64,000 bases of DNA. It comes from Pseudomonadota bacterium (GTDB lineage: Bacteria; Pseudomonadota; Gammaproteobacteria; Ga0077536). Under the pieces are notes generated by a model. The model saw only the letters and a program-made list of their open reading frames with translations. It was not told where the DNA came from and did not search any database. The position numbers were made by a program, and so were the translations under genes. The stretch is taken from positions 3,116-67,115 of the forward strand of contig JAYYZW010000092.1 in assembly GCA_036339995.1 (NCBI GenBank). The letters run 5' to 3'. Shown here piece by piece: positions 9,218-59,967 of the stretch. The first letter of the stretch is position 1. The number at the start of each line of letters is the position of its first letter.

Positions 9218-9461
9218 AGTGACCTTTCCAGCTTAGACTATAAAACGTCCTGCCATCCGAAACACCCTTTCAACCGCTGCGATCGCGTGCCGTGTCTGAT
9301 CCCCTCCTTGCCATGACACTGAAAAAACACGGTGAGGCGGGCCAAGGCGACCGGAATTTCCATGCAATATGAGGCGCCATTCGGCTTCTTCAGACGCCGT
9401 CCGCGTAGCGACCGTGCAAACGCTTTTTCCCTTACTCAATGCCGGCTACACTCAGCGTGTC

Positions 9462-10880
9462 ATGCCTGCCGAATGGATCAAGCCTTTTGACCTGCATTCA
9501 ATTCCGCCGAAAGCGGTGGATGATCTCTGGCGTTCACGACTGGATTTCGAGATCTACCAGGCGGCGCGGTCAGCCGGATTGACGGATGACCCCGGCATTT
9601 ATGCCGTTAACTACGAACGGTTTTACGCCGCCCTCGATGACATCGATATCGAACTCAATAAGCGGCGGTTTCTTCTCGGTGGCGAGGCGCCGAGTGCTAC
9701 GGACCAATGGCTGGCCGTCTTGCTGTGCTTGTACGAATCGGTGTTCTACGGCCTGTACAAACTCAATCGCCAGCGCCTCGAAGAATTTGCCAACCTGGCT
9801 CACTACACGCGGGATATCTTCAGCGACCGCGGGTTTCGCAATGCGATCGACTTCGAATCCCTGAAACGAAGTTTCTATCGCGAGAGCAAATTCATCAATC
9901 CGACGCAGAAGGTGCCGCTGGGTTCGATCGAACTGGACGCACCGCACGATCGCTCCATTCGTTTTGCATCGAGCGGTAGGGAATCCGACGCCGAGGAAGA
10001 TCAGAACAAGCGCCGGCTGGATGGGGAATGGGTGCGAAAGATCAGCCGCCACCGGCACCGTATCAGCGCCGACGGCAGTTCGGGCTTTCCGGCCGAACGC
10101 GGTCGTTACCATCTGTACGTCGCGAATAACTGTCCTTGGTGTCATCGCGCCGTGCTGACGCGCAAACTGAAAGGACTCGAAGACGTCATTTCGATGGACG
10201 TACTTTACTTTCGTCGGGATCCGAATCGCGGCTGGCAATTCCGCCCGGAGGAGGCCGGATGCACGCCCGACACGCTATTCGGGCATCACTACATTCGCGA
10301 AGTCTACGACCGAGTGGGCTCGGCAGAATCCTCGGTGCCCGTGTTATGGGACCGCGAAACGGAGACCATCGTCAGTAACGAGTCGGCCGAGATCATTCGC
10401 ATGTTCGACGATGCGTTCGTCGGGTTCTCCAACGGCGTTCTATCGCTCTACCCCTCGCATCTGCGGGCGCAGATCGACGGCGTCAACACCTTCACTTACC
10501 ACGCCATCAATAACGGTGCCTACAAGGCGGGATTCACCGACAGCCAGGCCGCCTATGAAGCGGCGTACCGTAGGTTCTTCGACGCTTTGGAGACCCTCGA
10601 TCACATGCTCCGGGGCCGGCGATTTCTCCTCGGGGATACGGTAACGGAAGCCGATATTCGGCTATTCCCGACGATATTCCGCTTCGACGCGGTTTACTAC
10701 ACGCGCTTCAATCTCGACGAACGCATGGTGCGCGACATCCCCCCGCTCAAACGCTGGCTCGAAAATATGCTCTTCATTCCGGGCGTCGCCGAAGCCAGCA
10801 ACCTGGAACATTGTCGCAAGGGGTATTTCGGACGCGCTGGCAACAAGATCGTGCCGCTCGGTCCCCGGGTCCGACCGTAG
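9462..10880 (+). CDS. glutathionyl-hydroquinone reductase (YqjG/GST Xi-class-like) with an extra N-terminal GST C-terminal-like domain
   Basis: GRYHLYVANNCPWCHR, SVPVLWD, IVSNESAEIIRM, NNGAYKAGF, TEADIRLF. The N-terminal ~170 aa resemble a second helical domain. Start uncertain (9369 or 9462). Confidence 0.85.
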   Translation: MPAEWIKPFDLHSIPPKAVDDLWRSRLDFEIYQAARSAGLTDDPGIYAVNYERFYAALDDIDIELNKRRFLLGGEAPSATDQWLAVLLCLYESVFYGLYKLNRQRLEEFANLAHYTRDIFSDRGFRNAIDFESLKRSFYRESKFINPTQKVPLGSIELDAPHDRSIRFASSGRESDAEEDQNKRRLDGEWVRKISRHRHRISADGSSGFPAERGRYHLYVANNCPWCHRAVLTRKLKGLEDVISMDVLYFRRDPNRGWQFRPEEAGCTPDTLFGHHYIREVYDRVGSAESSVPVLWDRETETIVSNESAEIIRMFDDAFVGFSNGVLSLYPSHLRAQIDGVNTFTYHAINNGAYKAGFTDSQAAYEAAYRRFFDALETLDHMLRGRRFLLGDTVTEADIRLFPTIFRFDAVYYTRFNLDERMVRDIPPLKRWLENMLFIPGVAEASNLEHCRKGYFGRAGNKIVPLGPRVRP

Positions 10881-10936: not shown

Positions 10937-11497
10937 TTACGATTCGGCGGCGTGGGGCAGCGGACAAGTCTGGCCGATCTCGAGGCCGAGCGCGTAGATC
11001 AAGCGGCCGTATCCGATAAAAGTCACGATACGCCAGCCGAGATCGAGGATCTCCGGTTCGGTGAAATGCTCTCTCAGTTCGTCGAACAGGGCTTCCGACG
11101 CCCGACGGTGATCCCCGGCGAGTACTTCCGCGAAATGGATGGCGGCTTTTTCGCGCGGAGAGAGCAGTTCACTCGATTCATAGTTCGGAATCTCAGCGAT
11201 TTCTGCTTCTGTCAATCCTTCCTGCCGTGCAACTGCAAGGCGGGCGTTCATTCAGAGATTACATTCGTTCTTTTGCGCGACCATCAAGCGCGCGAGTTCG
11301 GTGATCTTCGTGGTAACGGCGCCGCGGGTTTCGAGTTCGAGCGGAAAATAAAAATCGATGAACTTTCGAAACACGTCGGGCGCGTTGGCTAGCACCTGTA
11401 CGAAGCCGGAACCACCCAGTTCTTCGTCGTACTGACGCATGACGGCCTGCAGGTCTTTCGGGACCTGCTCGAAAGGAACGGCGCTCAGTCGTGCCAC
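10937..11497 (-). CDS. AhpD/carboxymuconolactone decarboxylase-family selenoprotein (CxxU; in-frame UGA at 11254-11252)
   Basis: Two in-frame ORFs are separated only by TGA: ...ELARLMVAQKNEC-N-L-[UGA]-MNARLAVARQEGLTE...LREHFTEPEILDL. GTG start at 11497 after a GAGGAGG RBS. Confidence 0.85.
11224..11241 (-). promoter_or_regulatory. putative bacterial SECIS hairpin
   Basis: GCCUUGC-AGUU-GCACGGC starts 11 nt after the UGA, with an unpaired U in the stem and a GU-containing loop. It resembles the E. coli fdhF SECIS in position and shape. Confidence 0.65.
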
Positions 11498-11604
11498 GGA
11501 TTTTCCTCCTCTAAGGTAGCTTAGGCAAATGAAGCTATCACCGTTCGTTCCCGGTGACAACGAACGGCGGGCGAACGAAACGTTCAACTATTCAAATCGG
11601 CATC

Positions 11605-11879: not shown

Positions 11880-12140
11880 CTACGATCGGCTGATTTCATA
11901 AACGTCCTTGAAGGCGATCATTTCCACCAAGTGTTCTTCATTATCGCCCGGAAAACCACATTCGGGCATGAATTCGGTGGTGCCTTTGTAAGTTCCAAAG
12001 ATCCGGTCCCAAATCGGCAGGTCGGAATAATTGTAGTCGTGGACATCCAGCTGATGGTGTATCGAATGCAACTCGGGCGTCTGAATGAAGTAGCGTAAAA
12101 GCTTCGGCGATTTGAAATTGGCGTGACAAAAATACTCGCC
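11880..12140 (-). pseudogene. 3' remnant of a sterol desaturase/fatty acid hydroxylase gene
   Basis: GEYFCHAN...QTPELHSIHH...NYSDLPIWDRIFGTY. The upstream part of the frame is antisense to an unrelated remnant. Confidence 0.75.
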
Positions 12141-12628
12141 CAACAGGGTGCCGAGCGCCAGGCGCTGGAGGCCGAACGACAACATCTGGACGAAGAGGAG
12201 CGGCGGCTGGCTGAAGAACAACGGCGCCGCGAGGAAACACGCCTGGCTGAAATCGAACGCCTGCGCCTGCAACATGAAGCGAGGCGCGGGCCGAGGACGA
12301 GAAGCGCTCACGCTTCAAGGGTTTGTTGACGAGCGCGGTAGCGGCGGTAGCCGAGCGCGACAAGGAAACACCCTTGCGCGATTACCAGGCGGCCCTCGCC
12401 CTCAATCCGACGGATCAGCGTGCCGCGGCCGGGATCGGGGATGCAGAGCGTTTATTGGATAAAGTGTGCTACGAGATTCTGGGCCGTTGGGAATGCGCGA
12501 ACCCGCGATCCCGCAGCTTTCGCATCACCCTGACCGCGGCGAGTTTCAGCAATACATGGGTTGCCAAATTGAGCGCCGATGGACGTTGTCTGGACGCAGA
12601 CCACGGAGGGGGGTTCGAACGGCGGTAA
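12141..12628 (+). pseudogene. broken coiled-coil/TPR-like protein remnant
   Basis: ERQALEAERQHLDEEERRLAEEQRRREE, then in another frame DYQAALALNPTDQRAAAGI. No proper start. Confidence 0.45.
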
Positions 12629-14314: not shown

Positions 14315-15733
14315 TTATTCCGGCCAGCGATGGACCCAGGGCCGCGCGGCTTCGAGCTGTGCCGAGAGGCGGAACAGGCTCGCCTCGTCCGCATAGCGGC
14401 CCATCAGGTGCACGCCGATCGGCAGATTGTCCTTGTTCCAGTAGAGCGGCAGCGATATCGCCGGCTGGCCCGTCGCGTTCGCCGGTGCCGTAAACCTCGG
14501 GATGTTCTCCATGCGCTCGGTCGACTGGCGCGGGACCTCCGGATTGAAATCGAAGTACCCGATCGGTACGGGTGGCTCGATCATCGTCGGCGTCAGCCAC
14601 ACGTCGTAGGTCTCAAAGAAGGGCGCGACTTCACGCGCGAATAAATGCATGTCGTGGATCGCGAGCAGAAGATCCGACGGCCGCCGCTTCTCATCCACCT
14701 CGAACATCTTCCAGGTATGCAGCTCGAAATATTCCGGGCTCGGCGTCACCCCGGTACGCCGCGACCAATCGCGGATCATCCACGCGACCATCGCGCACCA
14801 GATGGTCGTGAAGAACTGTGTGAAGTGCTCACCCGAGACCTCGGGCCTGGCCTCTTCAACGTGGTGCCCCAAGTCTTCGCACAGCGCGGCCGCCTCGTGC
14901 GCCGCCTGCTGGCAGTCGGGATGAACCTCGGTCGGGACGATCGCTTGTGTGCTGAATGCGATCTTGAGCCGGCCCGGATCGGCGCCGACTTCCTCGGCGA
15001 ACGGACAGGCCGGTGGCGGCGGGAAGAATGGCGCGCCGACATCGGCGCCGGCCGTGATGTCGAGCACCACGGCCGTATCCATCACCGTACGGGTGACGAC
15101 GTGTTCACACAGGAGACCGGCGGCGCCGACGTCACCATAGTCAGGTCCCAGCGGATTACGGCCGCGCGTCGGCTTGAGACCGACCAATCCACAGTTGCCC
15201 GCGGGAATGCGGGTCGAGCCGCCGCCGTCGTTGGCATGCGCGATGGCAACCATACCCGCGGCCACGGCGGCGCCGGCACCGCCCGAAGACCCGCCGGGTG
15301 AACGACTCTTGTCCCAGGGGTTGAGTGTCGCTCCGTAGAGTTCGGGTTCGGTGGTCGGCTTCGAGGCGAACTCGGGTGCATTTGTCCTGCCAACCATGAC
15401 CAGTCCGCCGCGCCGGTAACGCGAGACGAGTTCGCTGTCACGCGTCGAGACATAGCCGCGTAGAAAGCGCGAACCCTCGGTCATCGGCGCACCCGCGTAC
15501 TCCGCGAGCACGTCCTTCAAGAGCATCGGTACGCCCGACAGCGGTTCCTCGCTCCTGAGGTCGCCCACCGCGGCACGGGCCATATCGTACATCGGCAGAA
15601 TAACGGCGTTCAAATCCGGATTTAATTTTTCGATCGCCGCGATCGCGGCCTCCACCATTTCGGCGGCGGACACTTCGCCCTGACGTATGAGACGCGCCTG
15701 TTCGACGGCACTCAGCCTCATGAGATTTTCCAC
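14315..15733 (-). CDS. amidase (amidase-signature family)
   Basis: [35 protein letters not shown]. Confidence 0.93.
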
Positions 15734-15980
15734 GCTACGCTCCCCTTTCGACGACAACCGCCGCGCCGGCGGTCCATGAAACCATCAGGCCGATAAACAG
15801 GCTGTTAAAGATAGCGAGGCTGCTCGTGGGTGTCTATCTGGCGCACCTGGCGCGCCCGCCCGGAACCGATCCACAGGAACCTGAGAATTCTCATCCATGG
15901 ATGAGATTCACGGCCTTGAACGATGCGATAATTACACTTAAGTCGCGTCAAATTTCAATCATTAAGAGCGCAGTTCTCTC

Positions 15981-17504
15981 ATGCCCGAGCAACAGCCCGC
16001 CATCGCAACACAATATCGCGTCGAAGAAACCACGATCGGAGAGATCCATGAAGCCATGAGGGGCGGCACGCTGAGCGCGGCGGAACTGGTCGAATGTTAC
16101 CTTCGCCGTATCGATGCCTACGATCAGGCAGGCCCGAAGATAAACTGCATCGTGAACATCAATGAAAACGCGCGGGAACGTGCGGCGGAACTGGACGATG
16201 CGTTTGCGCGCGCCGGTGAATTCACCGGGCCGCTGCACGGCATACCCGTACTGGTCAAGGACTGCATAGAGACGAACGATGCGACGACGACATTCGGCAA
16301 CATCGCTTTCGCCCAATATCGGCCGAAATCCGACGCCACGGTGGTGCGCAAGCTCCGCGAAGCGGGCGCCATCATCTTCGCGAAGACGACGCTGCCGGAT
16401 TTCGCGACGAGCTGGTTCGGCTACTCCTCAATGAGCGGCCATACCTTGAATCCGTACGCCCTCGATCGCGATCCGGGCGCTTCGAGCTCCGGCAGCGGCG
16501 CGGCGACCGCGGCAAACCTCGCGACGATATCCCTAGGAACCGATTGTGGGGGATCGATACGCGTGCCCTCGTCGTTCAACAATCTCGTCGGAATTCGCAG
16601 CACGCCGGGCTTGATCAGCCGCAACGGCGTCGCCTGCCTGATTTTCTTCCAGGACACCATCGGCCCGATGACCCGCACCGTGAGCGATGCCGCAACGGTC
16701 TTCGATACGCTCGTCGGCTATGATCCGGCGGATTCGCTTACCGCTGCCTACCACGTAGCGCAGGCCCCTGAAACCTACACCGCCCACCTCGCGGCCGACG
16801 GCTTGAACGGCGCGAGGCTGGGGCTAGTGACGAACGCCCTCGGATCCGAAGACAACGAATACGCCGCGCCGGTGAATGAGGTCATCCGCAAAGCCGTCAC
16901 GGCGATTGAGAAGGCGGGCGCGAGGATACTCGAAGTAGAGATCCCGGATCTCCCGCACCACATCGGCGCGACCCTGCTCTATGTCAACCGGACCAAGTTC
17001 GACATCAATTCGTTTCTCGGCGCGCGGCCCGACGCACCCGTCCGTAGCCTGAGCCAACTGATCGAAAGCCGCCGCTACGATCCCGCGTGTGACCTGCTCG
17101 AACAATGCGGCTTCGGTCCGGACCGGCCAGAATACGACCCGATGTATTATCAACGTCTGGCAGCGCGCGAGGAATTCGCGCGGGCGACGCAGAACGTTCT
17201 GTCGGGCAACGAGCTCGATGGCCTGATCTACCCCAGCGTTCAGGTGGTGCCGCCATTGATCCGCGATTGCGACGAAGGCATGTGGCCGACTCTCGCCTTC
17301 CCGACCAACACGCTCATCGCCTCGCAGACCTGGATGCCCGCGATCAGCGTACCGGCGGGTTTTACCGATCAAGGCCTGCCGGTCGGGCTCGAAATCATCA
17401 GCCACCAGTACGCCGAACCGAAGCTGTTCCGCCTCGCCTACGGTTTCGAGCAGGCGACGCATTACCGCCGTGCGTCCGAGAACACCCCGGAACTTGCCCC
17501 TTGA
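15981..17504 (+). CDS. amidase (amidase-signature family)
   Basis: LHGIPVLVKD, PGASSSGSGAA, GTDCGGSIRVP. Confidence 0.93.
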   Translation: MPEQQPAIATQYRVEETTIGEIHEAMRGGTLSAAELVECYLRRIDAYDQAGPKINCIVNINENARERAAELDDAFARAGEFTGPLHGIPVLVKDCIETNDATTTFGNIAFAQYRPKSDATVVRKLREAGAIIFAKTTLPDFATSWFGYSSMSGHTLNPYALDRDPGASSSGSGAATAANLATISLGTDCGGSIRVPSSFNNLVGIRSTPGLISRNGVACLIFFQDTIGPMTRTVSDAATVFDTLVGYDPADSLTAAYHVAQAPETYTAHLAADGLNGARLGLVTNALGSEDNEYAAPVNEVIRKAVTAIEKAGARILEVEIPDLPHHIGATLLYVNRTKFDINSFLGARPDAPVRSLSQLIESRRYDPACDLLEQCGFGPDRPEYDPMYYQRLAAREEFARATQNVLSGNELDGLIYPSVQVVPPLIRDCDEGMWPTLAFPTNTLIASQTWMPAISVPAGFTDQGLPVGLEIISHQYAEPKLFRLAYGFEQATHYRRASENTPELAP

Positions 17505-17942: not shown

Positions 17943-18076
17943 ACGCACACTCATCGACCGCTTACATGCCTGACTAGTCTCGCACGCTCGCGAGAGCAGC
18001 GTAATTCGAGGTGACTGGTCGGCGCCCCATAGGGGGGCGCTCGAATCACAAATCCTCGAGAAGAAGGAACAATCCG

Positions 18077-20341
18077 ATGATGAAGATAACCGCATACGCA
18101 GACCGTATTAGCGCGGCCCCCGGTGAAACGATCAAATTCATGGTCAACTGCGAAGCGCCCGCGTTCAAGGCCGACATCGTCAAGCTCATCTGTGGCGACA
18201 TGAATCCCGATGGCCCGGGCTACAAGGAAAAGGTGGTCAAGACCAGCGCCACCGGTAAGTACAAAGGTCGCAGGCAGATCATCCATGCCGGTTCGTTCGT
18301 CGAAATCGAACCATCCGAGGCTTTTCAGAATCTGGAAAGTTTCACCCTGCAAGCCTTCATCTGGCCGACGACTCCGGAAAAAGGACGCCAGGCCATCATT
18401 GCGCATTGGTCCGATCGCTTGCACACAGGCGCGTGTCTCTCGATCGCAGCGGACAACAGCGGGGTGGAACTCACGATCGGCGCGGGTAAACGCAAGGTGC
18501 AAAGCGTGACGACCGGAAAGCCGCTGCTCGCGCACGAGTGGTATTTCATCGCCGCGAGTTTCGATGCCAAGAGCAGGAACATCACGCTCGTGCAGGAGCC
18601 CCTCCACACCCACGAGCTAACGAACGACGCGGCGCTAAAAAGGCACAAATCGAAGTTTGCCAGGATCCCGGACCACCCCGATCCCGTGACCATCGGCGCC
18701 CAGTTCAAACGCCGCGATAAGGGGCGCACGGTTTGTACCCACCACTTCAACGGCAAGATTGACAGTCCGCGCATCGTGCGGCGGGCGCTCGACCGGACCG
18801 AAATGCAAGCCATCAAGACCCTTCCGATCAACGCGGAACTGATCACCGACGTCGTCGCGGCTTGGGACTTTTCGATCGGCATTACGGGCACCACCGTCAC
18901 GGATATGTCACCAAATCGTCTGCACGGCCGCACCGCTCAACTTCCCGTCCGGGGCATGACCGGATGGAATTGGTCGGGCGAGGAGATGTGCTGGCGCCAC
19001 GCGCCCGAGCACTATGGCGCGATTCACTTTCATGACGACGACATCTACGACGCCGGCTGGAAAGTCGATTTCTCGTTAACCATACCGAACAATCTCAAGA
19101 GCGGGCTCTATGCCGCGCGCCTGAGCTGCGGCAAATCCATCGAGGAAGAAGATTACGTACCGTTCGCGGTACTGCCGCCCCGCGGCAAGGCCACGGCCAA
19201 AATCTGTTTTCTGCTTCCGAGTGCAAGCTACCTCGCGTATGCCAACGAGCAGATGGTCAACGACGCTGCGATCGGGCAATTGCTCGGCGGCCGGCTGGTG
19301 GAGCACAACCAGCAGGACGAATACCGCAGCGTCCATCGCGAATATGGTGGGAGCTGCTACGACACGCACAGCGACGGTTCGGGCGTCTGTTATTCCTCCC
19401 GCCTCCGTCCGATCCTGAACATGCGTCCTAAGTACCGGTCATGGCTAGGTGGGGAATATTCGAGTCTGTGGCAGTTCAACGCCGACACACACACCATCGA
19501 TTGGCTGGAAGCCTTGCGGTACGACTACGACGTGATCACCGATGAGGAGCTTCATCAACAGGGCGTTGCCGCGATCGAGCCCTACAAGGTCGTCTTGACC
19601 GGCTCGCATCCGGAATACCATTCCAAAGAAATGTGGGACGCGATGGACGCCTATCAGCAACGCGGCGGGCGCTTGATGTACCTTGGCGCGAACGGCTGGT
19701 ACTGGCGCATCGCCTATCACGGCGAACTGCCCGGCGTCATGGAAGTACGCCGTGGGGAGGGCGGCATCCGCGCCTGGGAGGCTCGTACGGGCGAGTACTA
19801 CCACTCGTTCACCGGCGAATACGGTGGCTTGTGGCGGCGCAATGGCCGCGCGCCGCAACGAATCGCCGGCACGGGGTTTACCGCGCAGGGCTTCGACCTT
19901 TCGTCCTACTACGCCCAGCAACCAGACGGCCGTAAGCGGGAAGTGAAATGGATCATGGCGGGGATCGGCAAGAACGAACGCATTGGTGATTTCGGTCTGA
20001 TCGGCGGCGGCGCCGCGGGCCTCGAGCTCGATCGCGCCGATCGCCTGCTCGGCACCCCGCCAGGCGCCTACCTGCTCGCGTCGTCCGAAGGTCACACGGA
20101 TATCTATCTCGTCGTCTGCGAGGAATTGTTGATCAACTATCCGGGTCTCGGCGGTCACGAAAGCGAGCTCGTACGCGCCGACATCGTGTTTTATCCGACG
20201 TCGAACGGTGGCGGTGTATTCTCGACCAGCTCGATCGCCTGGCCTGGATCGTTGTCACACAATAACTACCGGAACAATGTCTCGCGCATGACCAAGAACG
20301 TGCTGGACCGTTTCGCCAGCGACAAGGCATTGCTCGACTGA
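18077..20341 (+). CDS. dmfA2: N,N-dimethylformamidase large (beta) subunit family protein
   Basis: YADRISAAPGETIKFMV, LamG-like segment (HFNGKIDSP), AIHFHDDD, SYLAYANE, SCYDTHSDGSGV, GSHPEY, AGLELDRAD. Confidence 0.9.
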   Translation: MMKITAYADRISAAPGETIKFMVNCEAPAFKADIVKLICGDMNPDGPGYKEKVVKTSATGKYKGRRQIIHAGSFVEIEPSEAFQNLESFTLQAFIWPTTPEKGRQAIIAHWSDRLHTGACLSIAADNSGVELTIGAGKRKVQSVTTGKPLLAHEWYFIAASFDAKSRNITLVQEPLHTHELTNDAALKRHKSKFARIPDHPDPVTIGAQFKRRDKGRTVCTHHFNGKIDSPRIVRRALDRTEMQAIKTLPINAELITDVVAAWDFSIGITGTTVTDMSPNRLHGRTAQLPVRGMTGWNWSGEEMCWRHAPEHYGAIHFHDDDIYDAGWKVDFSLTIPNNLKSGLYAARLSCGKSIEEEDYVPFAVLPPRGKATAKICFLLPSASYLAYANEQMVNDAAIGQLLGGRLVEHNQQDEYRSVHREYGGSCYDTHSDGSGVCYSSRLRPILNMRPKYRSWLGGEYSSLWQFNADTHTIDWLEALRYDYDVITDEELHQQGVAAIEPYKVVLTGSHPEYHSKEMWDAMDAYQQRGGRLMYLGANGWYWRIAYHGELPGVMEVRRGEGGIRAWEARTGEYYHSFTGEYGGLWRRNGRAPQRIAGTGFTAQGFDLSSYYAQQPDGRKREVKWIMAGIGKNERIGDFGLIGGGAAGLELDRADRLLGTPPGAYLLASSEGHTDIYLVVCEELLINYPGLGGHESELVRADIVFYPTSNGGGVFSTSSIAWPGSLSHNNYRNNVSRMTKNVLDRFASDKALLD

Positions 20342-37562: not shown

Positions 37563-37667
37563 CCGCAGCAGCCTTGAAAGAGGCCCGTGGGGAACGGGCC
37601 GCCTGTCTGAACGCGGGGGCCGTTGGCGAAATTTTTGCCAAACACGTGTTCATTTCATGAAGGGGAC

Positions 37668-39077
37668 ATGATGACTACGGTGAACGAACTCTGTACATCC
37701 ACCCTCCTCGACGTCGCCAGACGTATCGAGAGCAAGGAAATCTCGCCGGTCGAGCTGACCGAGGCGATGCTCGCTCGAATCAGAGAGATCGACGGCAAGC
37801 TGAATAGCTATCTCCTGGTGACGACGGATCTCGCCCTGGAACAGGCCGCGCGCGCCGAAGCAGAGATTATCCGGGGGACTTACCACGGACCGCTGCACGG
37901 GATGCCCATTGCCCTCAAAGATCTCGTCAACACCCGGGGCAGTCCGACCACTTGCGCGTCGATAATCCTCAAGGATTTCAAGCCGGATTACGACGCCGCC
38001 GTGGTCGAGCGTCTGAACGCGGCCGGTGCGGTGATCCTGGGCAAACTGAATCTGACCGAATTCGCGCTCTATGGCTACCATCCAAATTTCGAGCCGCCCG
38101 CTAATCCGTGGAACCTCGACTACTGGTCGGGCGTGTCTTCGAGCGGCTCGGGCGCAGCGACCGCCGCCTCCCTGTGCTACGCAAGTCTGGGGACGGATAC
38201 CGGCGGATCCATCCGCTTTCCATCCGCCGCTTGCGGCGTGGTCGGCATCAAGGCGACGTTCGGCAAGGTAAGCCGTTACGGGGTCTTTCCCCTTTCCGAC
38301 ACCCTCGATCACATCGGGCCCATGGCACGCAGCGTCGGCGATGCCGCCGCCATGCTGCAAGTACTCGAAGGTCGCGATCCGCGCGACGGCTCGACGCGTA
38401 CCGATCCGTTCTGTGATTACTCACAGGTGCTCGACAAGGGCATCAAAGGCATGCGGATCGGAATCGATCGCGTGTACTCCACCACCGATACCGATCCCCA
38501 GATGTCGGACGCCCTGTTCGCCGCCGTCGATCTAATGGCAAAGCTCGGCGCTGAAATTGTCGAGCTGACTTCGCCCGAACTCGCCGACGCCGCCGATCAC
38601 TGGATGGCGACCTGCAGCGTCGATGCCTTGTTGGGGCACAAGAATTTCTACCCCAAGCGCGCGGACGACTATGGACCCGTGTTTCGCTCGCTGCTCGACC
38701 ACGGCGCAAAGGTGAGCGCTGAAGAGTATGCCCGCGCGCAGCGACAGCGCCAGACGACCCGCGCGCTGCTCGACGAACTGCTGACCGATATCGACGTCAT
38801 GGTGTGCCCCGCGGCGCCCTCGCCCCCGATGCCGCAGTCAGAGTTTCCTCCGCAGCAGGTCGCACCGGTCGAGGACATCGCGCCGCTGGTCCGGTTCGCC
38901 GCGCCGACCGACTTCGCCGGCAACCCGAGCATCACCCTGCCCAACGGCTTCACTGATGACGGCTTACCGCTCGCGATGCAATTCATCGGCCGCCACGGCG
39001 ACGAAGCCGGTATTATCCGCGCAGCGGCGGCCTACGAAACGGCCACTGAGTGGCACAATGCACGGCCACCGATCTAG
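37668..39077 (+). CDS. amidase (GatA-like amidase-signature family)
   Basis: LHGMPIALKD, SGVSSSGSGAA, GTDTGGSIRFP. Confidence 0.93.
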   Translation: MMTTVNELCTSTLLDVARRIESKEISPVELTEAMLARIREIDGKLNSYLLVTTDLALEQAARAEAEIIRGTYHGPLHGMPIALKDLVNTRGSPTTCASIILKDFKPDYDAAVVERLNAAGAVILGKLNLTEFALYGYHPNFEPPANPWNLDYWSGVSSSGSGAATAASLCYASLGTDTGGSIRFPSAACGVVGIKATFGKVSRYGVFPLSDTLDHIGPMARSVGDAAAMLQVLEGRDPRDGSTRTDPFCDYSQVLDKGIKGMRIGIDRVYSTTDTDPQMSDALFAAVDLMAKLGAEIVELTSPELADAADHWMATCSVDALLGHKNFYPKRADDYGPVFRSLLDHGAKVSAEEYARAQRQRQTTRALLDELLTDIDVMVCPAAPSPPMPQSEFPPQQVAPVEDIAPLVRFAAPTDFAGNPSITLPNGFTDDGLPLAMQFIGRHGDEAGIIRAAAAYETATEWHNARPPI

Positions 39078-53249: not shown

Positions 53250-54770
53250 CTATTTGACCCCGAGCGTCGGGATCTTATGCTCACCCAGCGCGACACAGAT
53301 GTTTTTCCGCTCCATGTAGAAATCGAAGCTGTAATCACCACCGTCGCGGCCGATCCCGCTCGCTTTCATACCGCCGAAGGGCGCCAGCAGGTGTCGGTTG
53401 TTTTCCGAGTTGATCCAGATCATACCCGCGTCGAGATCGCGCGAAAAGCGGTGCGCTCGCGAGATGTCGCGCGTCCATAGGTAGCCGGCAAGCCCGTAAT
53501 CTACGTCGTTTGCGATCGTCAGGGCCTCGTCTTCGTCCTCGAACGCGATGGCGGTGAGTACCGGTCCGAAAATTTCCTCCTGGGCGATGCGCATACCGGC
53601 CTTTGCCGATGTAAAAAGAGTTGGCTCGACGAAAGTGCCGCCGGGCAAGCAAGTAGCCACCGTACCGCCAGTGGCAATGACGGCGCCCTCGTTCTCGGCA
53701 ATCCGGAAGTACTCCTCGACCTTCGCGAGATGACGCCGGTGGATCAAGGGGCCGATCTCGGTAGCGGGATCGAGTGGATGACCGACCTTGATTGTCCGTG
53801 CCCGCTCTGCAATGCGGTCAGTGAATTCATCGTAGATGTTCGCCTGTACCAGCACCCGGCTCGATGAAGTGCAGCGCTCGCCGTTTAAGCTATAGATCAT
53901 GAACACCACCGCGTCGAGCGCGCGGTCGAGATCGGCGTCATCGAAAACAATCACCGGATTCTTGCCGCCGAGTTCGAAATGGACGCGCTTCAAGCTCGGT
54001 GCGCCCTGCGCCATAATGTGGCTGCCGGTCCGCGACTCCCCAACGAACGCGATCGCCTTGATCGCTTCGTGCTCGGTCAGTGCCTTGCCCGCCTCTTCAC
54101 CGAAGCCGTGAACGGTATTCAATACACCCGCAGGTAAGCCGGCCTCCGTACATATCTCGGCGAGCATGGCCGCGGTCAGCGGGCTCCATTCGGCGGGTTT
54201 ATGGACGACCGTGCAGCCCGCCGCGAGCGCCGGCGCAATTTTCCAGGTCGACAACATGAACGGTGTGTTCCAGGGCGTGATGACGCCTACCGGGCCAATG
54301 GGTTGGCGCAAGGTGTAGTTCACATGCTGTTCAGCGGGCAGCGACAAGCCGTCGCGGGCTTCAGGCGCGCGGTCGGCGAAGAACCGGAAGTTTTCCGCAG
54401 CGCGAATCGCGGCTTTGCTCATGAAGCGAAGCGGCTGACCGGTGTCGATACTTTCGATCAGCGCGATGTCGTCCTTGCGGGCAATGATGACGTCGGCAAT
54501 GCGGTGCAGCAACGCTTTGCGCTGGGAGCCTGCCATGCGCTGCCACGCGGGAAAGGCGGCCTGAGCTGCCGCGGCGGCGCGGTCGACGTCATCCGCGGTA
54601 CCACTCGCGACCTCACCGAGGACGCTGTTGTCGACCGGCGTCAGGTTTTGAAACGTTGCGACGGCGCCCATGTTAGGACCACCGTCGATGAAATGCGCAA
54701 GCACGTCAGATCGATATCGTTCGAGCAAGGGCTCGAGACGCGCGAGATTCTCTTGCAGTTCTTTGTTCAC
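53250..54770 (-). CDS. hpaE: 5-carboxymethyl-2-hydroxymuconate semialdehyde dehydrogenase
   Basis: ITPWNTPFMLSTWKIAPALA, FELGGKNP, YSLNGERCTSSSR, GRDGGDYSFDFY. Confidence 0.9.
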   Translation of the reverse strand: MNKELQENLARLEPLLERYRSDVLAHFIDGGPNMGAVATFQNLTPVDNSVLGEVASGTADDVDRAAAAAQAAFPAWQRMAGSQRKALLHRIADVIIARKDDIALIESIDTGQPLRFMSKAAIRAAENFRFFADRAPEARDGLSLPAEQHVNYTLRQPIGPVGVITPWNTPFMLSTWKIAPALAAGCTVVHKPAEWSPLTAAMLAEICTEAGLPAGVLNTVHGFGEEAGKALTEHEAIKAIAFVGESRTGSHIMAQGAPSLKRVHFELGGKNPVIVFDDADLDRALDAVVFMIYSLNGERCTSSSRVLVQANIYDEFTDRIAERARTIKVGHPLDPATEIGPLIHRRHLAKVEEYFRIAENEGAVIATGGTVATCLPGGTFVEPTLFTSAKAGMRIAQEEIFGPVLTAIAFEDEDEALTIANDVDYGLAGYLWTRDISRAHRFSRDLDAGMIWINSENNRHLLAPFGGMKASGIGRDGGDYSFDFYMERKNICVALGEHKIPTLGVK

Positions 54771-54840
54771 ACTTGCTTGCTTCTACCGCCGAAGGGCGGC
54801 GCAGCCGGAAGACCCAGGAATCTGTGTTGCATTGCGGCTC

Positions 54841-55239
54841 CTAGCGCTCCGCTTCACGGCGCTCGATCCATTGTGGAAGATTGTTACTCTTGAAATTAAG
54901 ATCGGGATCCATTTCCTGCATCTCAAATGAAATCGCCAACGGCATGCGATCCGACAGCGGCGCGAGGTGGGTAGTGGCCGCGTTGAATATCGCCTGGCAG
55001 CCCGCCTTCTTGATCTCGAGCGTGCGGCCATGCCCGATGCGGGCAAGTAAGTGGATGAAGGCATTGTCCGGGTGACCGTCGGCAATGCGATAACGATCGC
55101 GCCGCACCGCGCGGGTTCTTATCCCTTTCAAGGGGAAGATTCCCGTGGCGAGTGCGGCTTCGTGAATGACCCGCACGAATTCGGAGATATCCAGCTCATT
55201 ATCCAAATTGGCCGAATATTCGATGATGAAATGCGGCAT
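54841..55239 (-). CDS. hpaF: 5-carboxymethyl-2-hydroxymuconate isomerase
   Basis: N-terminal Pro MPHFIIEYSANL, GIFPLKGIRTRA, IGHGR. Confidence 0.9.
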   Translation of the reverse strand: MPHFIIEYSANLDNELDISEFVRVIHEAALATGIFPLKGIRTRAVRRDRYRIADGHPDNAFIHLLARIGHGRTLEIKKAGCQAIFNAATTHLAPLSDRMPLAISFEMQEMDPDLNFKSNNLPQWIERREAER

Positions 55240-55289
55240 GGGCTTGTGATCCTCGCCTAATTTCAAGATTTGCCAGCATAGCTCAGATA

Positions 55290-55305
55290 ACTTAACATGT
55301 TAAGT
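55290..55305. promoter_or_regulatory. putative HpaR operator in the divergent promoter region
   Basis: Perfect 16-bp palindrome ACTTAACATGTTAAGT (TTAA-N4-TTAA core). Confidence 0.75.
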
Positions 55306-55343
55306 ACATTTTTGAGAGGCACCCTCAGTGGAGCGGCAGCGGC

Positions 55344-56201
55344 ATGAGACTGGCGAGCTACCGGTACGAAAACGAAGATACTTTCGGGGTCGTCACCGAC
55401 GACGGCCTCATCGACCTCAGTAAACGCCTGGGGCCCGGGGTTCGAAGCCTCAAGGGCCTGATAGCGGCGAACCGGATGGACCAGGCCCGCGAGATTGCCG
55501 CGAGGGTTTCGCCCGATTGCGGCCTCGATGAAATCTCCTTTCTTCCCACGATCACCGGTCCCGAGAAAATCGTTTGTATTGGCGTCAACTACGTCAATCG
55601 CAACGAGGAATACAAAGACGGCTCACCGCTCCCGGAATTCCCGAGCGTATTCATGCGCACGCGCGAATCATTGGTCGGGCACCAGCACCCCTTGATCAGG
55701 CCGCCCGAATCGGAGCAGCTCGATTACGAAGGCGAAATAGCTATCATCATCGGCAAGGAGGGGCGCCGTATCGCCGAAGATCGGGCTCATGAACACATCG
55801 CGGGTCTCTCGGTCCTGAACGAGGGATCGATACGTGACTGGTTGCGCCACGCCAAATTCAACGTCACCCAGGGCAAAAACTTCGAACGTTCCGGCGCGCT
55901 CGGGCCGTGGATGGTTACCACTGACGAGATTTCCGATTACGAGAACCTGTGGTTGACGACTCGTGTAAATGGCGAGATGCGCCAACACGATACGACCGCC
56001 AACCTGCTCTTTCCGTTTCGGTATTTGATCCGCTACCTGTCGACGTTCATGCGGCTGAAACCCGGCGACGTGATCTCAACCGGCACGCCGAATGGCGCCG
56101 GTGCACGCTTTGACCCGCCGAAGTATCTCAAGCCGGGCGACGTCGTCGAAGTGGAAGTGCCGGGGGTCGGCACGCTTGTCAATTCGGTCATCGATGAATA
56201 G
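55344..56201 (+). CDS. fumarylacetoacetate hydrolase family protein (HpaG-like decarboxylase/isomerase)
   Basis: KIVCIGVNY, LDYEGE, TQGKNF, GDVISTGTP; hpa context. Confidence 0.88.
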   Translation: MRLASYRYENEDTFGVVTDDGLIDLSKRLGPGVRSLKGLIAANRMDQAREIAARVSPDCGLDEISFLPTITGPEKIVCIGVNYVNRNEEYKDGSPLPEFPSVFMRTRESLVGHQHPLIRPPESEQLDYEGEIAIIIGKEGRRIAEDRAHEHIAGLSVLNEGSIRDWLRHAKFNVTQGKNFERSGALGPWMVTTDEISDYENLWLTTRVNGEMRQHDTTANLLFPFRYLIRYLSTFMRLKPGDVISTGTPNGAGARFDPPKYLKPGDVVEVEVPGVGTLVNSVIDE

Positions 56202-56277
56202 GCGAGCGGCGGTTGACGGGATCGCGGTACGTAAACGGCCGACGGGTAGCGTCGCGCAAGGGCGGCATACGCTGCCG

Positions 56278-56706
56278 ATGCGCGATTTCTCGCATTCCCT
56301 GCCAATGGCTTTGCTCAATACGCGCGAGAAGGTCATGGAGGAGTTTCGCCCGATGCTGCGCGGATTCGCATTGACCGAGCAGCAGTGGCGCGTGATCCGC
56401 ATCCTGGTCGAAGCGAGTCCGATCGAGGCGACCGAACTCGCAGCGCGAAGTCGCATTCTGGCGCCAAGCCTTACCCGCATCCTGCAGAATCTCGAGCTGC
56501 GCAGCCTGATCTCTCGTCGGGCCATCCGCGCGGATCAACGCCGAGCAGCTATCAGGCTGACGGCCAGAGGAAGGCGACTTTTCAATCGCGTGGCGCCGCA
56601 TTCGGAAACGCATTACGCTTCGATCACGACGGCGCTCGGAGCCGGTAAACTGAATAAGCTTTTCAGCCTTCTCGAAGAATTGGTCGACAGGCTCGATGAT
56701 TCGTAA
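56278..56706 (+). CDS. hpaR: MarR-family homoprotocatechuate operon regulator (paralog 1)
   Basis: HSLPMALLNTREKVMEEFRPML...LTEQQWRVIRIL...PSLTRIL. Alternative start at 56194. Confidence 0.85.
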   Translation: MRDFSHSLPMALLNTREKVMEEFRPMLRGFALTEQQWRVIRILVEASPIEATELAARSRILAPSLTRILQNLELRSLISRRAIRADQRRAAIRLTARGRRLFNRVAPHSETHYASITTALGAGKLNKLFSLLEELVDRLDDS

Positions 56707-56715
56707 AGTGCCAGT

Positions 56716-57018
56716 ATGAGTCTCTACTACGTACAGAAACTGCTTTACCAACTCAATCGCGACGCGCACGCGCGCGAGCGCTTTGAGGTGGACATCGACG
56801 CGCTGCTCGACGATTACGAACTCACTAATGAGGAAATCGAAGCTATCAAGCAGGGCGATATTGGGCTGCTCTACATCATGGGCGTGAACGGACAGATCCT
56901 CATGCATTACGCCGCCATGCGCGGGTATGCCTGGGACGAATATCTGGAATCCATGCGCACTTCGCTGCGCGAACATGGCGAGGTCCGAGCCGGGCTCTAT
57001 GGCACGGTCTGGGAGTAG
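56716..57018 (+). CDS. LigA-like aromatic ring-opening dioxygenase small subunit
   Basis: MSLYYVQKLLYQLNRD...YELTNEE...GDIGLLYIMGVNGQILMH; 3 nt before the LigB-like gene. Confidence 0.8.
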   Translation: MSLYYVQKLLYQLNRDAHARERFEVDIDALLDDYELTNEEIEAIKQGDIGLLYIMGVNGQILMHYAAMRGYAWDEYLESMRTSLREHGEVRAGLYGTVWE

Positions 57019-57021
57019 CGG

Positions 57022-57843
57022 ATGAGCCTGGTCTTTGCGGGAGCCTGTTCGCACGCACCGGGGATCACCGGGCGCTCGGAACGCGCAGACCCTGAAATCC
57101 GCGATGCTTTCTACGCGGCCTTCGATCGGCTGCGCGGCGCGCTCGAAGCATCACGACCGGACGTCCTCATCGTGATCGGCGCCGAGCACTTCGCCAATTT
57201 TTTCATGGATAACATGCCGGCCATCTGCATGGGTATGGCGGAATATTATGAAGGTCCGATAGAGGATGAAGAGTGGCTCGGGATTAAGTACCGGAAGGTA
57301 CCAGGCAATCCCGTGCTGTCCGAGCGCTTGATCAAGACGGTGATGCAGGACATTGATCTCGCGTATGCACAGGAATGGAAATTCGATCACGGCATCATCG
57401 TACCGTTGCATTTCCTGGCTCCGCGGAACGACCTACCGGTCATTCCGGTAAACATCAACTGCCAGGGCCCGCCGCTCATTCCCCTGCACCGCTGTTATGA
57501 ATTCGGTCGCGCACTCAGGCGCGCTTGCGACGCCCAGTCCGAGCGCATTGCCATTGTTGGCACCGGCGGGATTTCACACTGGCCGGCAACACCCGATTCA
57601 GGCACCATCAACGAAGCTTGGGATCGCGAGTTTCTCGAACGCTTCGTGAACAACGAACGCGACGCGCTGCTCGCTTACACCGATGAAGACACCTACCGCG
57701 AAGCGGGCCAGGGAGGATTCGAGATCCGCACCTTCGTCGCGGTCGCCGGCGCGACCGAGGGCGCGCGAGGCGAACTTTGGTTTTATGCACCCATCCCCAT
57801 CTTCGCGGTTGGCTGCACGATCGCGACGATGGCCGTCGCCTGA
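57022..57843 (+). CDS. LigB/MhpB-like extradiol ring-cleavage dioxygenase
   Basis: CSHAPG, AEHFANFF, FDHGIIVPL, GTGGISHW, GGFEIRTF. Confidence 0.9.
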   Translation: MSLVFAGACSHAPGITGRSERADPEIRDAFYAAFDRLRGALEASRPDVLIVIGAEHFANFFMDNMPAICMGMAEYYEGPIEDEEWLGIKYRKVPGNPVLSERLIKTVMQDIDLAYAQEWKFDHGIIVPLHFLAPRNDLPVIPVNINCQGPPLIPLHRCYEFGRALRRACDAQSERIAIVGTGGISHWPATPDSGTINEAWDREFLERFVNNERDALLAYTDEDTYREAGQGGFEIRTFVAVAGATEGARGELWFYAPIPIFAVGCTIATMAVA

Positions 57844-58037
57844 TTTGGCGCTTTCCTGAGAAACCAGCGGGCGCCGGATCCCAAGGGCGCGTGCCAACCG
57901 CTACCCGTCACGCCGTATTTAAACAATTCCCTCTACGCAAGGATTACCCGCGAGCGGGTGCACCTGATATCCACAAAGTCATTCTCCGGGAGTGAAGATG
58001 GAACTTGCTTTTATCGGCAATTGCGATATCTTGATTT

Positions 58038-58055
58038 TAATTAATATATTAATTA
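58038..58055. promoter_or_regulatory. putative HpaR operator upstream of hpaR2-hpaB
   Basis: Perfect 18-bp palindrome TAATTAATATATTAATTA (TTAA-N4-TTAA core), 7 nt before the ATG. Confidence 0.7.
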
Positions 58056-58062
58056 CTAATAT

Positions 58063-58494
58063 ATGAATCAATTCGATCGCTCACTGCCGATGATGCTGTA
58101 CCGCACGCTGGACGTGGTGATGCCCGAGTTTCGCGCAATCTTCAAGCGTTTCAGGTTAACCGAGCAGCAATGGCGCGTTTTACGTGTGCTGTGGGAGCGC
58201 GATGGTTGTGCACTGCTCGAACTTGCCGAAGCAACCTGTGTATCGGGGCCCAGTCTCGTCGGCGTTATTGACCGGCTGTCCCGGGATGGCCTAGTAAGGC
58301 GCCGGCGATCGGATACCGATCGACGGGTAGTGCGAATCAGCCTCACGCGCAAGGGACGCCAGCTCGAAAAGCGAGTCGTTCCATTGGTCGACGAGGCCTA
58401 CCGGCGATTGGAGCGATCGATAAGCCGGCCCGACTGGCTGGCCTTGATGAAAGGCTTGGACGCCGTCATGACGGCGAGTCCGCAGGAACAGTAG
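58063..58494 (+). CDS. hpaR: MarR-family HpaR-like regulator (paralog 2)
   Basis: RSLPMMLYRTLDVVMPEFR...LTEQQWRVLRVLW...PSLVGVIDRL. Confidence 0.82.
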   Translation: MNQFDRSLPMMLYRTLDVVMPEFRAIFKRFRLTEQQWRVLRVLWERDGCALLELAEATCVSGPSLVGVIDRLSRDGLVRRRRSDTDRRVVRISLTRKGRQLEKRVVPLVDEAYRRLERSISRPDWLALMKGLDAVMTASPQEQ

Positions 58495-58518
58495 AGCCAA
58501 CCCGAGAGGATAGAAACC

Positions 58519-59967
58519 ATGGGTGTATGCACGGGTGTTGAGTATCTGGAACGGCTGCGCGACGGGCGCGAAGTTTGGATTGAGGGTGAACGCGTGAAGG
58601 ACGTGACGGCGCACGCGGGACTCAAACGCGGGGCGCAGACAATGGCGCGCCTGCTCGACCGGCAGCACGAATCGGATTTTGCCGACATACTTACTTATGC
58701 CGAGGCCGGCAGTGACGAGCGCTACGCGATGTCCTTTCTACCACCCCGAACCAGAGAGGACGTCCTCGCGCGCGGCCGCGCATTTTATGACTGGGCCAAA
58801 TGGTCCAATGGCATGCTCGGGCGGACACCCGATTACCTGAACGCCTCGTTCACGGCATTCGCGGGCGCCGCCGATTTTTTCGCCGAGTGCCGCGACGACT
58901 TCGCTGGCAACGTGCGCGCTTATTACGAAAAGATCCGTAACAAGGACCTGGTGTTGACGCACACCCTCGTCAATCCGCAGGTGAACCGTCGCATCACGGC
59001 GACCGGTCTTGCAAGCGAAGAAGTCGCCCTGCGCGTCGTCGACGAGACCGACGCGGGTCTCATCGTCAAGGGCGCGCGTCTGCTCGCCACACTCGGCCCA
59101 TTATCCGACGAGATCGCTGTCTTTCCCTCGACCCTGCTCAAGGCGGCGCCGGAAACCAAGCCGTATGCCCTCGCGTTCGCGGTTGCCAACGATACGCCCG
59201 GCATGAAATACATCTGCCGCGACTCCTACGACGAAGGAAAATCCTTGTTCGACGCACCGCTGTCCGGCCGCTTCGAGGAGATGGATTGTGTCGTCATATT
59301 CAACGACGTCCTGGTTCCCTGGGAACGCGTGTTTCTATATGACGCGCCTGAGTTGTGCAATCGCGCTTATGCCGACACCAGCGCGGTCGTCCACATGATG
59401 CATCAAGTGGTATGCAAGAACCTCGCGAAGGCCGAGTTCATCGTGGGCTTGTTATGCGCGATGACCCGGGCTAACGAACGCGATCACGACGGCACCGTGC
59501 AGGGGCAAATCGCGGAGGCGATGTGGATTGCCGAGACGATGCGCGCCCTGCTTTTCAGTGCAGAGCAGCAGGCTGAAGAAGACTCGCGGGGTTTCTACGC
59601 GCCGCAGCGTCGCCCACTCGACACGGCGCGCAACCTGTTTCCAAAAATGTATCCGCGGTTGGTCGAAATCGTGCAACTGCTCGGTTCGAGTTCGCTAATG
59701 GCGACACCGTGCGAAGCCGACCTCAACAACGCGCTGGCCAGCGACGTCGAGCAATACTTTCAGCTCGCCAATCTCGAAAGCCGCGACCGGATCGCGTTGT
59801 TTCGTCTCGCCCACGACGTGGCGGTCTCGAGTTTCGGCGGGCGCCAACAACTCTACGAACGATTCTTCTTCGGGCCGCAGAACGTAATGGCGTCGATTTT
59901 CTACAAGCTTTACGATAAGGATTCCCTGATCGGCCGGGTCAATGAGCTACTGACACGCAGCGCTTAA
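58519..59967 (+). CDS. hpaB: 4-hydroxyphenylacetate 3-monooxygenase, oxygenase component
   Basis: TGVEYLERLRDGREVW, GRTPDYLN, THTLVNPQ, GARLLATL, RFEEMD, LYERFFFG. Confidence 0.92.
   Translation: MGVCTGVEYLERLRDGREVWIEGERVKDVTAHAGLKRGAQTMARLLDRQHESDFADILTYAEAGSDERYAMSFLPPRTREDVLARGRAFYDWAKWSNGMLGRTPDYLNASFTAFAGAADFFAECRDDFAGNVRAYYEKIRNKDLVLTHTLVNPQVNRRITATGLASEEVALRVVDETDAGLIVKGARLLATLGPLSDEIAVFPSTLLKAAPETKPYALAFAVANDTPGMKYICRDSYDEGKSLFDAPLSGRFEEMDCVVIFNDVLVPWERVFLYDAPELCNRAYADTSAVVHMMHQVVCKNLAKAEFIVGLLCAMTRANERDHDGTVQGQIAEAMWIAETMRALLFSAEQQAEEDSRGFYAPQRRPLDTARNLFPKMYPRLVEIVQLLGSSSLMATPCEADLNNALASDVEQYFQLANLESRDRIALFRLAHDVAVSSFGGRQQLYERFFFGPQNVMASIFYKLYDKDSLIGRVNELLTRSA

Follow-up and report, generated by a model that had tools for sequence, protein, structure and literature searches.

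An in-frame TGA, very probably decoded as selenocysteine, in an AhpD/CMD-like gene of a gammaproteobacterial contig

We analysed a 64,000-nucleotide stretch of a contig assigned to the Gammaproteobacteria (lineage Ga0077536), referred to here as the window, and conclude that positions 10937..11497 of its minus strand very probably hold a single gene of the AhpD/CMD family whose in-frame TGA is decoded as selenocysteine (Sec). What sets this conclusion apart from chance comes from comparison among relatives: 60 of 63 related loci keep the TGA, the hairpin that follows it in the messenger RNA shows covariation, and synonymous change is suppressed exactly at that place.

Organisation of the gene

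Under translation table 11 the region is read as two open reading frames (ORFs), 11252..11587 (minus strand, 111 amino acids) and 10937..11251 (minus strand, 104 amino acids), which share one frame and adjoin. From a GTG at 11497 to the TAA the frame is open except for a single TGA at 11254-11252, and the sequence at the joint, TGT AAT CTC TGA ATG, gives the motif C-N-L-U. The read-through product has 186 amino acids, with U at residue 82 in the peptide KNECNLUMNAR. In the plain table-11 translation of a 97% identical relative (L001, the sole locus syntenic with the window), M stands at the equivalent of the GTG start codon, i.e. the codon is ATG. A preliminary description of this DNA had claimed two in-frame ORFs joined by one TGA, with C-N-L-U at the CxxC site of AhpD/CMD proteins. 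Both points held, coordinates included: the joint lies on the minus strand, and distant full-length homologs have CxxC where read-through gives C-N-L-U. The features of the gene are as follows.

10937..11497, minus strand: whole 186-codon ORF of the putative AhpD/CMD-like selenoprotein, translated with TGA as U, including the TAA stop (10939-10937).
11505..11510, minus strand: Shine-Dalgarno (SD) sequence AGGAGG, 7 nt 5' of the start codon, read off the sequence.
11495..11497, minus strand: GTG start codon; the N-termini of homologs (M-A/S/P-R-...) start at the same residue.
11297..11299, minus strand: GAA, Glu67, 12 residues before the first Cys, at an AhpD proton-relay position; invariant in alignment A1 (compare Glu36/Cys48 of PA0269).
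11261..11263, minus strand: TGT, Cys79, first residue of CxxU; invariant in A1, and Cys in 60 of 63 loci and Ala in 3.
11252..11254, minus strand: in-frame TGA, proposed Sec82; of 63 related loci, 60 have TGA at this codon and 3 have TGC.
11249..11251, minus strand: ATG, Met83, abutting the TGA; used by gene callers to start the 104-residue fragment.
11240..11242, minus strand: CGC, Arg86, at the position of the AhpD proton-relay His; invariant in A1, aligned to His55 of PA0269.
11221..11244, minus strand: SECIS-like hairpin (SECIS, selenocysteine insertion sequence), 11244-11235 paired with 11230-11221, with eight pairs and two 1x1 mismatches.
11234-11231, minus strand: apical loop AGUU of this hairpin.
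10964..10966, minus strand: TGT, Cys178, followed by Pro179, in the low-confidence C-terminal tail; invariant in alignment A3.

Family and predicted fold

The Pfam CMD domain (PF02627) covers residues 40-124 of the read-through product, across the TGA, at 36.7 bits against a cut-off of 23 (E 4.3e-9). Among the NCBIfam models the top match was NF053654, 'GroundWater_YciW, YciW-related (seleno)protein' (58.8 bits where the cut-off is 310, residues 2-154, E 5.6e-16), and TIGR01926, 'peroxidase-related enzyme', gave 56.2 bits against a cut-off of 81.8 (E 3.5e-15), with residues 4-171 aligned to positions 3-172 of the 178 in the profile. NF041047, 'GSU3128 family (seleno)protein', scored 26.8 bits against a cut-off of 110, other AhpD-type selenoprotein models matched more weakly, and every NCBIfam match lay under its curated cut-off. 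By NCBI's rule the protein is therefore not a member of TIGR01926, and scores so far under the cut-offs of NF053654 and NF041047 place it in a different subfamily.

We built an AlphaFold2 model of the read-through protein from a 20-sequence alignment. It has a single domain with a mean predicted local distance difference test score (pLDDT) of 86.7 and a predicted template modelling score of 0.81; a helix begins at residue 80, right after Cys79, and residues 177-186 have a pLDDT below 50. Foldseek comparison with the PDB gave full-length matches to 2prr, 6k40 and 6ohi (template modelling score, TM, 0.78-0.80, probability 1.00), and the shorter PA0269 was also matched (TM 0.67/0.85). When the PDB was searched with a sequence profile, PA0269 (2ijc) ranked first (E 4e-20), with 2prr at 3e-10 and Bmp8 at 5e-9. 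The read-through protein is thus predicted to fold as one all-helical AhpD-like domain. Since the CMD domain runs across the TGA and the model shows a single fold, the two 'ORFs' are halves of one domain.

Conservation of the TGA column

A scan of contigs, with one genome per species, gave 66 loci, 63 of which cover the TGA column, L064-L066 being without that part. The codon is TGC in L047, L050 and L053 and TGA in the other 60, and the motif reads CxxU in 57 loci, A-K-P-U in three (L057-L059) and CxxC in three. The protein sequence is conserved on both sides of the TGA, and the TGA loci have no other in-frame stops.

A word-indexed search of a protein collection gave 159 matches at E <= 0.001 among 414 candidates. 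Among the 120 matches listed there were 13 full-length homologs at 56-66% identity, and most of the remaining ones were pieces of about 102-116 amino acids covering the C-terminal half alone, at up to 99% identity. Across 19 aligned full-length homologs the Sec column holds Cys in 15 (CRLC, CRSC) and 'W' in four (CFLW), so that, as the preliminary description had expected, homologs carry Cys at this column in proteins and TGA or TGC in genomic loci. The four 'W' proteins (P0004, P0013, P0014 and P0015) come from contigs of 1.0-1.8 kb and group among TGA-bearing gammaproteobacterial loci in the tree described below; the residue is likely a TGA read by a code-4 gene model chosen for the short contig.

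We aligned 33 further matches, of which 21 start exactly after the TGA and 7 further downstream; the rest comprise three N-terminal pieces (two ending at C-x-L), one fragment of the Cys form and one chimeric prediction. An exhaustive search of a library clustered at 50% identity returned 1738 proteins at E <= 0.001 and 206 at <= 1e-10, with no protein at <= 1e-30, and its closest entries were fragments ending at query residue 81 or starting at 83 or 84. The N-terminal fragments retrieved end in ...CDL, ...AKP, ...CHL and ...CQL, and more distant homologs read CNTC, CANC and CAYC at the motif. Public sets carry the gene as predictions of an 81-residue N-terminal piece, which stops just before the TGA, and a 104-residue C-terminal one. 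The proposal that standard annotation cuts one Sec-containing AhpD/CMD-like enzyme in two is supported by these results, the homologs having Cys or TGA at the column and the halves being held as separate predictions.

The hairpin downstream of the UGA

The sequence GCCUUGC-AGUU-GCACGGC, at 11241-11224, begins at the 11th nucleotide after the UGA. It had been reported there previously, without mention of the one internal U/C mismatch that it contains. Two further C-G pairs lengthen the hairpin to 11244-11221. Its minimum free energy (MFE) is -11.0 kcal/mol, and the loop AGUU begins 17 nt after the UGA.

The 61 TGA sequences gave 45 distinct stretches of the 51 nt that follow the UGA, and these fall into two types. 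The window type has 17 distinct stretches encoding A-R-L-A-V-A-R, with a 4-nt loop that is AGUU in 2, AGGU in 1 and GGUC in 14. The 28 distinct stretches of the Binatia/delta type encode A-R-F-A-L-A-R and form a 7-bp stem, UUGCCUU-GGC-AAGGCAA, whose GGC triloop sits 3 nt further downstream than the window-type loop. In register A (the window type) 75.6% of cells were paired, and two pairs showed compensatory change, among them columns 18/27, where U-A has become C-G in 5 sequences; in register B the figure was 87.9%, with three compensatory pairs (columns 21/29, 22/28 and 23/27). Sliding the 3' partners by 1-3 columns as a control brought pairing down to 25-55%. A single consensus structure for all lineages was considered and rejected, given the weak RNAalifold result reported below; two registers describe the data better.

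Synonymous diversity, counted among sequences sharing the majority residue, was 0.224 at codons +1 to +11, compared to 0.508 at +12 to +89 and 0.479 at -75 to -1. This test used 55 of 59 sequences, L048, L052, L055 and L060 being dropped for want of an ungapped alignment over the span. The 11-codon window of lowest diversity in the entire gene begins at +1, and unusual codons, such as UUG for Leu and AGG for Arg, are fixed in the hairpin stretch.

Published criteria for bacterial SECIS elements (bSECIS) are given as an apical loop of 3-9 nt with G among its first two nucleotides, 16-37 nt away from the UGA, an MFE <= -7.5 kcal/mol and an upper stem of 4-16 bp (PMC13188914). For the loop (AGUU, with G second and then U), the spacing (17 nt) and the MFE, the hairpin of the window fits these values, which answers the check for a bacterial SECIS that the preliminary description had called for. 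All 45 distinct stretches fold at or below -7.5 kcal/mol. When 41 of them were compared with simplified bSECIS criteria, all 41 fitted, whereas the share among other in-frame windows in these genes was 29%. From its conservation and covariation, we consider it highly probable that the hairpin acts as the SECIS for UGA-82.

Evidence against selenocysteine decoding and other explanations

Several observations weigh against decoding as Sec. An NCBIfam scan of 48 ORFs found no selA, selB or selD in the 64-kb window, and no tRNA-Sec was found in the window or in the sequence flanking 60 of the 66 loci. At the hairpin itself, the stem in the window has just three contiguous pairs under the loop before the U/C mismatch (in order, three pairs, the U/C mismatch, three pairs, a C/A mismatch and two pairs; most homologs have seven contiguous pairs). 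Its stability is unremarkable (z 0.01 over 66 nt and -0.70 over 48 nt), and 25% of other in-frame 42-nt windows in the gene fold at least as stably. The three Cys-form loci L047, L050 and L053 also fold stably at the same place, at -16.9 to -22.6 kcal/mol. RNAalifold on all 45 sequences gave a weak consensus (-1.75 kcal/mol, 5 pairs), the shuffle control for covariation carries little weight because related sequences inflate it, and Rfam at its gathering thresholds matched nothing anywhere in the window.

The weak RNAalifold consensus arises because the hairpins of the two lineages are offset by about 3 nt. The proven SECIS of E. coli fdhF is equally unexceptional in stability (z -0.67), and because of this we discarded thermodynamic significance as evidence either way. 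An absence of the hairpin from Cys forms was likewise rejected as a criterion, since L047, L050 and L053 fold stably there, with different loops. The 42 nt after the TGC in these loci might be the remnant of an earlier SECIS, or else simply a GC-rich stretch. At E <= 10, Rfam gave nothing relevant around the site, just two weak unrelated matches. As for the Sec machinery, we infer that this organism has the trait, the search for selA, selB and selD having covered the 64-kb window.

Of the 25 window ORFs with a confident assignment, 10 end in TGA, which is therefore an ordinary stop here and not reassigned genome-wide. The window has 80 listed read-through candidates, 25 of which, including the gene under study, overlap known genes by less than 50%. 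Seven of the other 24 were tested with Pfam, and no second selenoprotein was found among these seven, none of which has a domain spanning its TGA.

If the TGA acts as a stop in this gene too, it would end an 81-residue polypeptide, and the adjacent ATG would restart one of 104 residues by termination-reinitiation, the two associating into the CMD fold. The window does have an ATG abutting the TGA, as have 38 of the 60 TGA loci, and gene callers predict exactly these two pieces. However, the other 22 TGA loci have no ATG there (CTG in 9, ATT in 3, ATC in 3 and others in 7), and seven of the 22 have codons that are not starts, one each of CGC, ACT, ACC, ACG, CTA, CAG and CAA. Met follows the second Cys in all six of six distant CxxC homologs, which marks it as a feature of the protein, and no SD-like motif precedes the ATG. 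Moreover, the chain would be broken precisely at the catalytic residue, a position that holds Cys in homologs, and low synonymous variation together with a covarying hairpin downstream is what a SECIS predicts. We therefore consider a split gene very improbable. Met83 is best read as a residue of the protein, and its ATG also explains why gene callers readily predict the 104-residue fragment. On the same three grounds (the 22 loci, the distant homologs and the lack of an SD-like motif), a separate C-terminal product from this ATG, which the preliminary description had allowed for, is unsupported.

The UGA could alternatively be read without selenium, with Trp or Cys inserted by a near-cognate or suppressor tRNA and the hairpin stimulating read-through. 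Such a reading would suit the four database records with W at the site, and the failure to find Sec machinery in the window or tRNA-Sec in the scanned flanks. It fits poorly with the use of TGA as a normal stop, seen in 10 of the 25 confident ORFs, and with a redox-active site at which homologs have Cys and never Trp, save in the four predictions from short contigs. The position of the hairpin and its small G-containing loop match SECIS elements of the SelB type and fdhF, and the protein family is documented as a user of Sec; we regard selenium-free read-through as highly unlikely. Finally, a single base change turns TGC or TGT into TGA, so that the codon might reflect a sequencing error or a mutation that inactivates the gene. 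That 60 genomes, assembled independently, share the TGA, conserve both halves of the protein and have no other in-frame stops effectively refutes a pseudogene or error, which can hardly be the explanation. Decoding of the TGA as Sec thus remains by far the best account of the gene.

Active site and proposed mechanism

The active site of AhpD in M. tuberculosis AhpD (MtAhpD) and PA0269 is described as Glu-x11-Cys-x-x-Cys-x3-His with one water, and the His four residues past the second Cys (His55 in PA0269, His137 in MtAhpD) is reported as invariant in the AhpD family (PMC3141380). Glu67, Cys79 and Sec82 of the read-through protein keep the Glu-x11-Cys-x-x-Cys spacing, and Glu67 and Cys79 are invariant in alignment A1. 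At the position of the relay His, however, all 20 sequences of A1 have Arg86, as do more distant homologs. Since Arg takes the place of the relay His, we assign the protein to the AhpD-like/CMD superfamily rather than to AhpD proper.

In the mechanism that we infer, from selenium insertion and its dependence on SelB to the substrate and the reductant, UGA-82 would be read as Sec by SelB and Sec-tRNA(Sec), steered by the mRNA hairpin within the coding sequence. C79-N-L-U82 would then form the active site, at the N-terminus of a helix, of a thiol-selenol oxidoreductase. The attack would come from the selenolate of residue 82, which as second in the motif corresponds to the nucleophilic Cys133 of MtAhpD; its oxidised target would be a peroxide, or else a partner peroxiredoxin with its cysteine oxidised. 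Cys79 would resolve the intermediate to give a selenenylsulfide, and a cellular reductant would regenerate the enzyme. No ahpC was found among the 48 window ORFs scanned with NCBIfam. As a speculation, Cys178-Pro179 could provide a third redox residue.

Spread and evolution

The TGA loci are labelled as Gammaproteobacteria, Binatia, delta/Myxococcota, Methylomirabilota, Alphaproteobacteria and others. L012, L044, L048 and L049 are titled as Enterobacteriaceae, Klebsiella sp. or Klebsiella pneumoniae metagenome-assembled genomes (MAGs). These four nest with Binatia (L044 with L022 and L041, Shimodaira-Hasegawa-like approximate likelihood ratio test, SH-aLRT, 98) or with uncultured Gammaproteobacteria, so that the taxon labels look unreliable.

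In the A-K-P-U loci L057-L059 (TGA at position 6232 of L057, 6235 of L058 and 6238 of L059) the first Cys is lost and the TGA and the hairpin are kept. The three form one clade (SH-aLRT 100). With the cysteine of CxxU lost, this branch would have to work with Sec alone. One contig carries both L059 and L004, which has the CxxU form, so that both paralogs occur in one genome.

A maximum-likelihood tree was built by a quick method from 76 rows, with five distant CxxC proteins as its root. In it the ten close Cys forms group as a single clade (SH-aLRT 99) inside the TGA-bearing group, the nesting branches being supported at only 83-87. Two state changes suffice on this tree, which has long branches at its root and at L061. 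It tentatively suggests a subfamily in which Sec is ancestral, with one reversion to Cys. Taken further, the loci quite possibly represent a distinct, uncurated, Sec-ancestral AhpD-like subfamily that is common in Binatia and uncultured Gammaproteobacteria. It would be marked by Arg in place of the relay His and by an invariant Cys-Pro tail that may hold a third redox residue; it would include an A-K-P-U branch that relies on Sec only and one clade that reverted to Cys, and its SECIS register would have moved by 3 nt while the protein stayed similar. We advance this wider picture tentatively.

Neighbouring genes

No conserved operon partner was found for the gene, and its neighbours in the window recur in L001 alone. 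Matches to acyl-CoA dehydrogenase in 19 loci, at varying positions, were set aside as paralog noise. The convergent neighbour at 9369-10880 (plus strand) encodes 503 amino acids, with a GST_N_2/GST_C_2 pair in its C-terminal half (255-468) and a CPWC motif. Its N-terminal part of about 250 residues matches no family, and its adjacency to the gene is kept in L001 alone. One database protein, P0120, looks chimeric, with GST domains joined to a C-terminal AhpD-like fragment.

The ORF at 11880-12311 (minus strand, 143 amino acids) matches the Pfam fatty-acid hydroxylase family over the C-terminal two thirds of the profile only (42-132 of 132), and an ORF at 11941-12363 (minus strand) overlaps it in another frame. 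The former may be truncated, frameshifted or given a wrongly chosen start. Three genes carry the amidase signature (14315-15757, 15981-17504 and 37623-39077), and 18011-20341 encodes a 776-residue protein resembling the beta subunit of N,N-dimethylformamidase (PF20254, E 5e-98); together these genes point to amide catabolism. A 4-hydroxyphenylacetate degradation cluster lies at 53250-59967, with HpaE at 53250-54770 (789 bits), an HpaG-like hydrolase at 55344-56201, a class III extradiol dioxygenase at 57022-57843 and HpaB at 58519-59967 (566 bits).

Significance

The analysis corrects the annotation of a gene family that is public mostly as fragments of 81 and about 104 residues, named 'hypothetical protein' or 'CMD family'. 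Recognising the read-through would add a selenoprotein to these genomes and would imply that little-studied lineages of soil and groundwater (Binatia and uncultured Gammaproteobacteria) have the Sec trait. About 60 natural variants of a putative SECIS within one gene also provide a resource on how such an element coexists with coding constraint. General knowledge of selenoproteins is unchanged.

Comparison with known systems

AhpD-like proteins had been named in the preliminary description as a recognised bacterial selenoprotein family, and they have been in print since 2005. An analysis of the Sargasso Sea in that year reported AhpD-like CxxU proteins (27 sequences, COG2128) and CMD-domain CxxU proteins (PMC1088965), and an analysis of the Global Ocean Sampling (GOS) data in 2008 reported two kinds, AhpD-like 1 (299 sequences) and AhpD-like 2 (70 sequences), of which the second was commoner in non-marine samples (PMC2398784). 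Both kinds are listed in a table of a 2026 review, tied to TIGR01926 and PF02627 (PMC13188914), and BSepDB has an AhpD-like family page (PMC13326102). Our protein shares with the Sargasso/GOS family the CMD/AhpD-like fold family, a proposed Sec second in CxxU, widespread CxxC homologs, a putative SECIS in the coding region directly downstream and a near full-length alignment to TIGR01926. It differs, as compared by profile and published description, in scoring under the TIGR01926 cut-off, and its relatives come from MAGs, partly groundwater or non-marine by title or contig name, whereas the family was described from ocean surface reads. The members of NF053654 and NF041047 are likewise AhpD/CMD-type (seleno)proteins, but the present protein scores far below both.

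With MtAhpD and PA0269 of P. aeruginosa (2ijc/2o4d) the protein shares the helix-turn-helix catalytic motif of Glu, 11 residues and C-x-x-C (here E67, C79 and U82). It differs in having Arg86 for the relay His and the proposed Sec for the second Cys, and, relative to PA0269, about 40 extra N-terminal residues. PA0269 is reported to reduce H2O2 weakly (PMC3141380). The model also resembles AhpD-core proteins of about 190 residues (2prr, 2oyo, 2pfx and 3c1l), the AhpD of D. radiodurans (6k40) and Bmp8 (6ohi/6ohj), with a TM of 0.76-0.80 over 172-178 columns; sequence identity to these is only 16-25%, and all are Cys proteins. Dehalogenase chemistry like that of the debrominase Bmp8 is only a possibility here.

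The likeness to the E. coli fdhF SECIS in spacing and shape, which had been noted previously, holds. Both elements are stem-loops within the ORF with a 4-nt apical loop containing G-U. The distance from the UGA to this loop is 18 nt for fdhF and 17 nt here; counted from the U of UGA, the loop starts at nt 22 and nt 21, respectively, i.e. within one base. The window differs in its loop AGUU, its shorter stem and its two 1x1 mismatches, and the Binatia-type relatives differ in their 7-bp stem, GGC triloop and 3-nt downstream shift. Among the window-type homologs, 14 of 17 distinct stretches have a loop, GGUC, identical to that of fdhF. The AhpD-like CxxU kind of selenoprotein is thus well known, and the gene described here is a further member of it, missed by the curated models of NCBI and split in public annotation.

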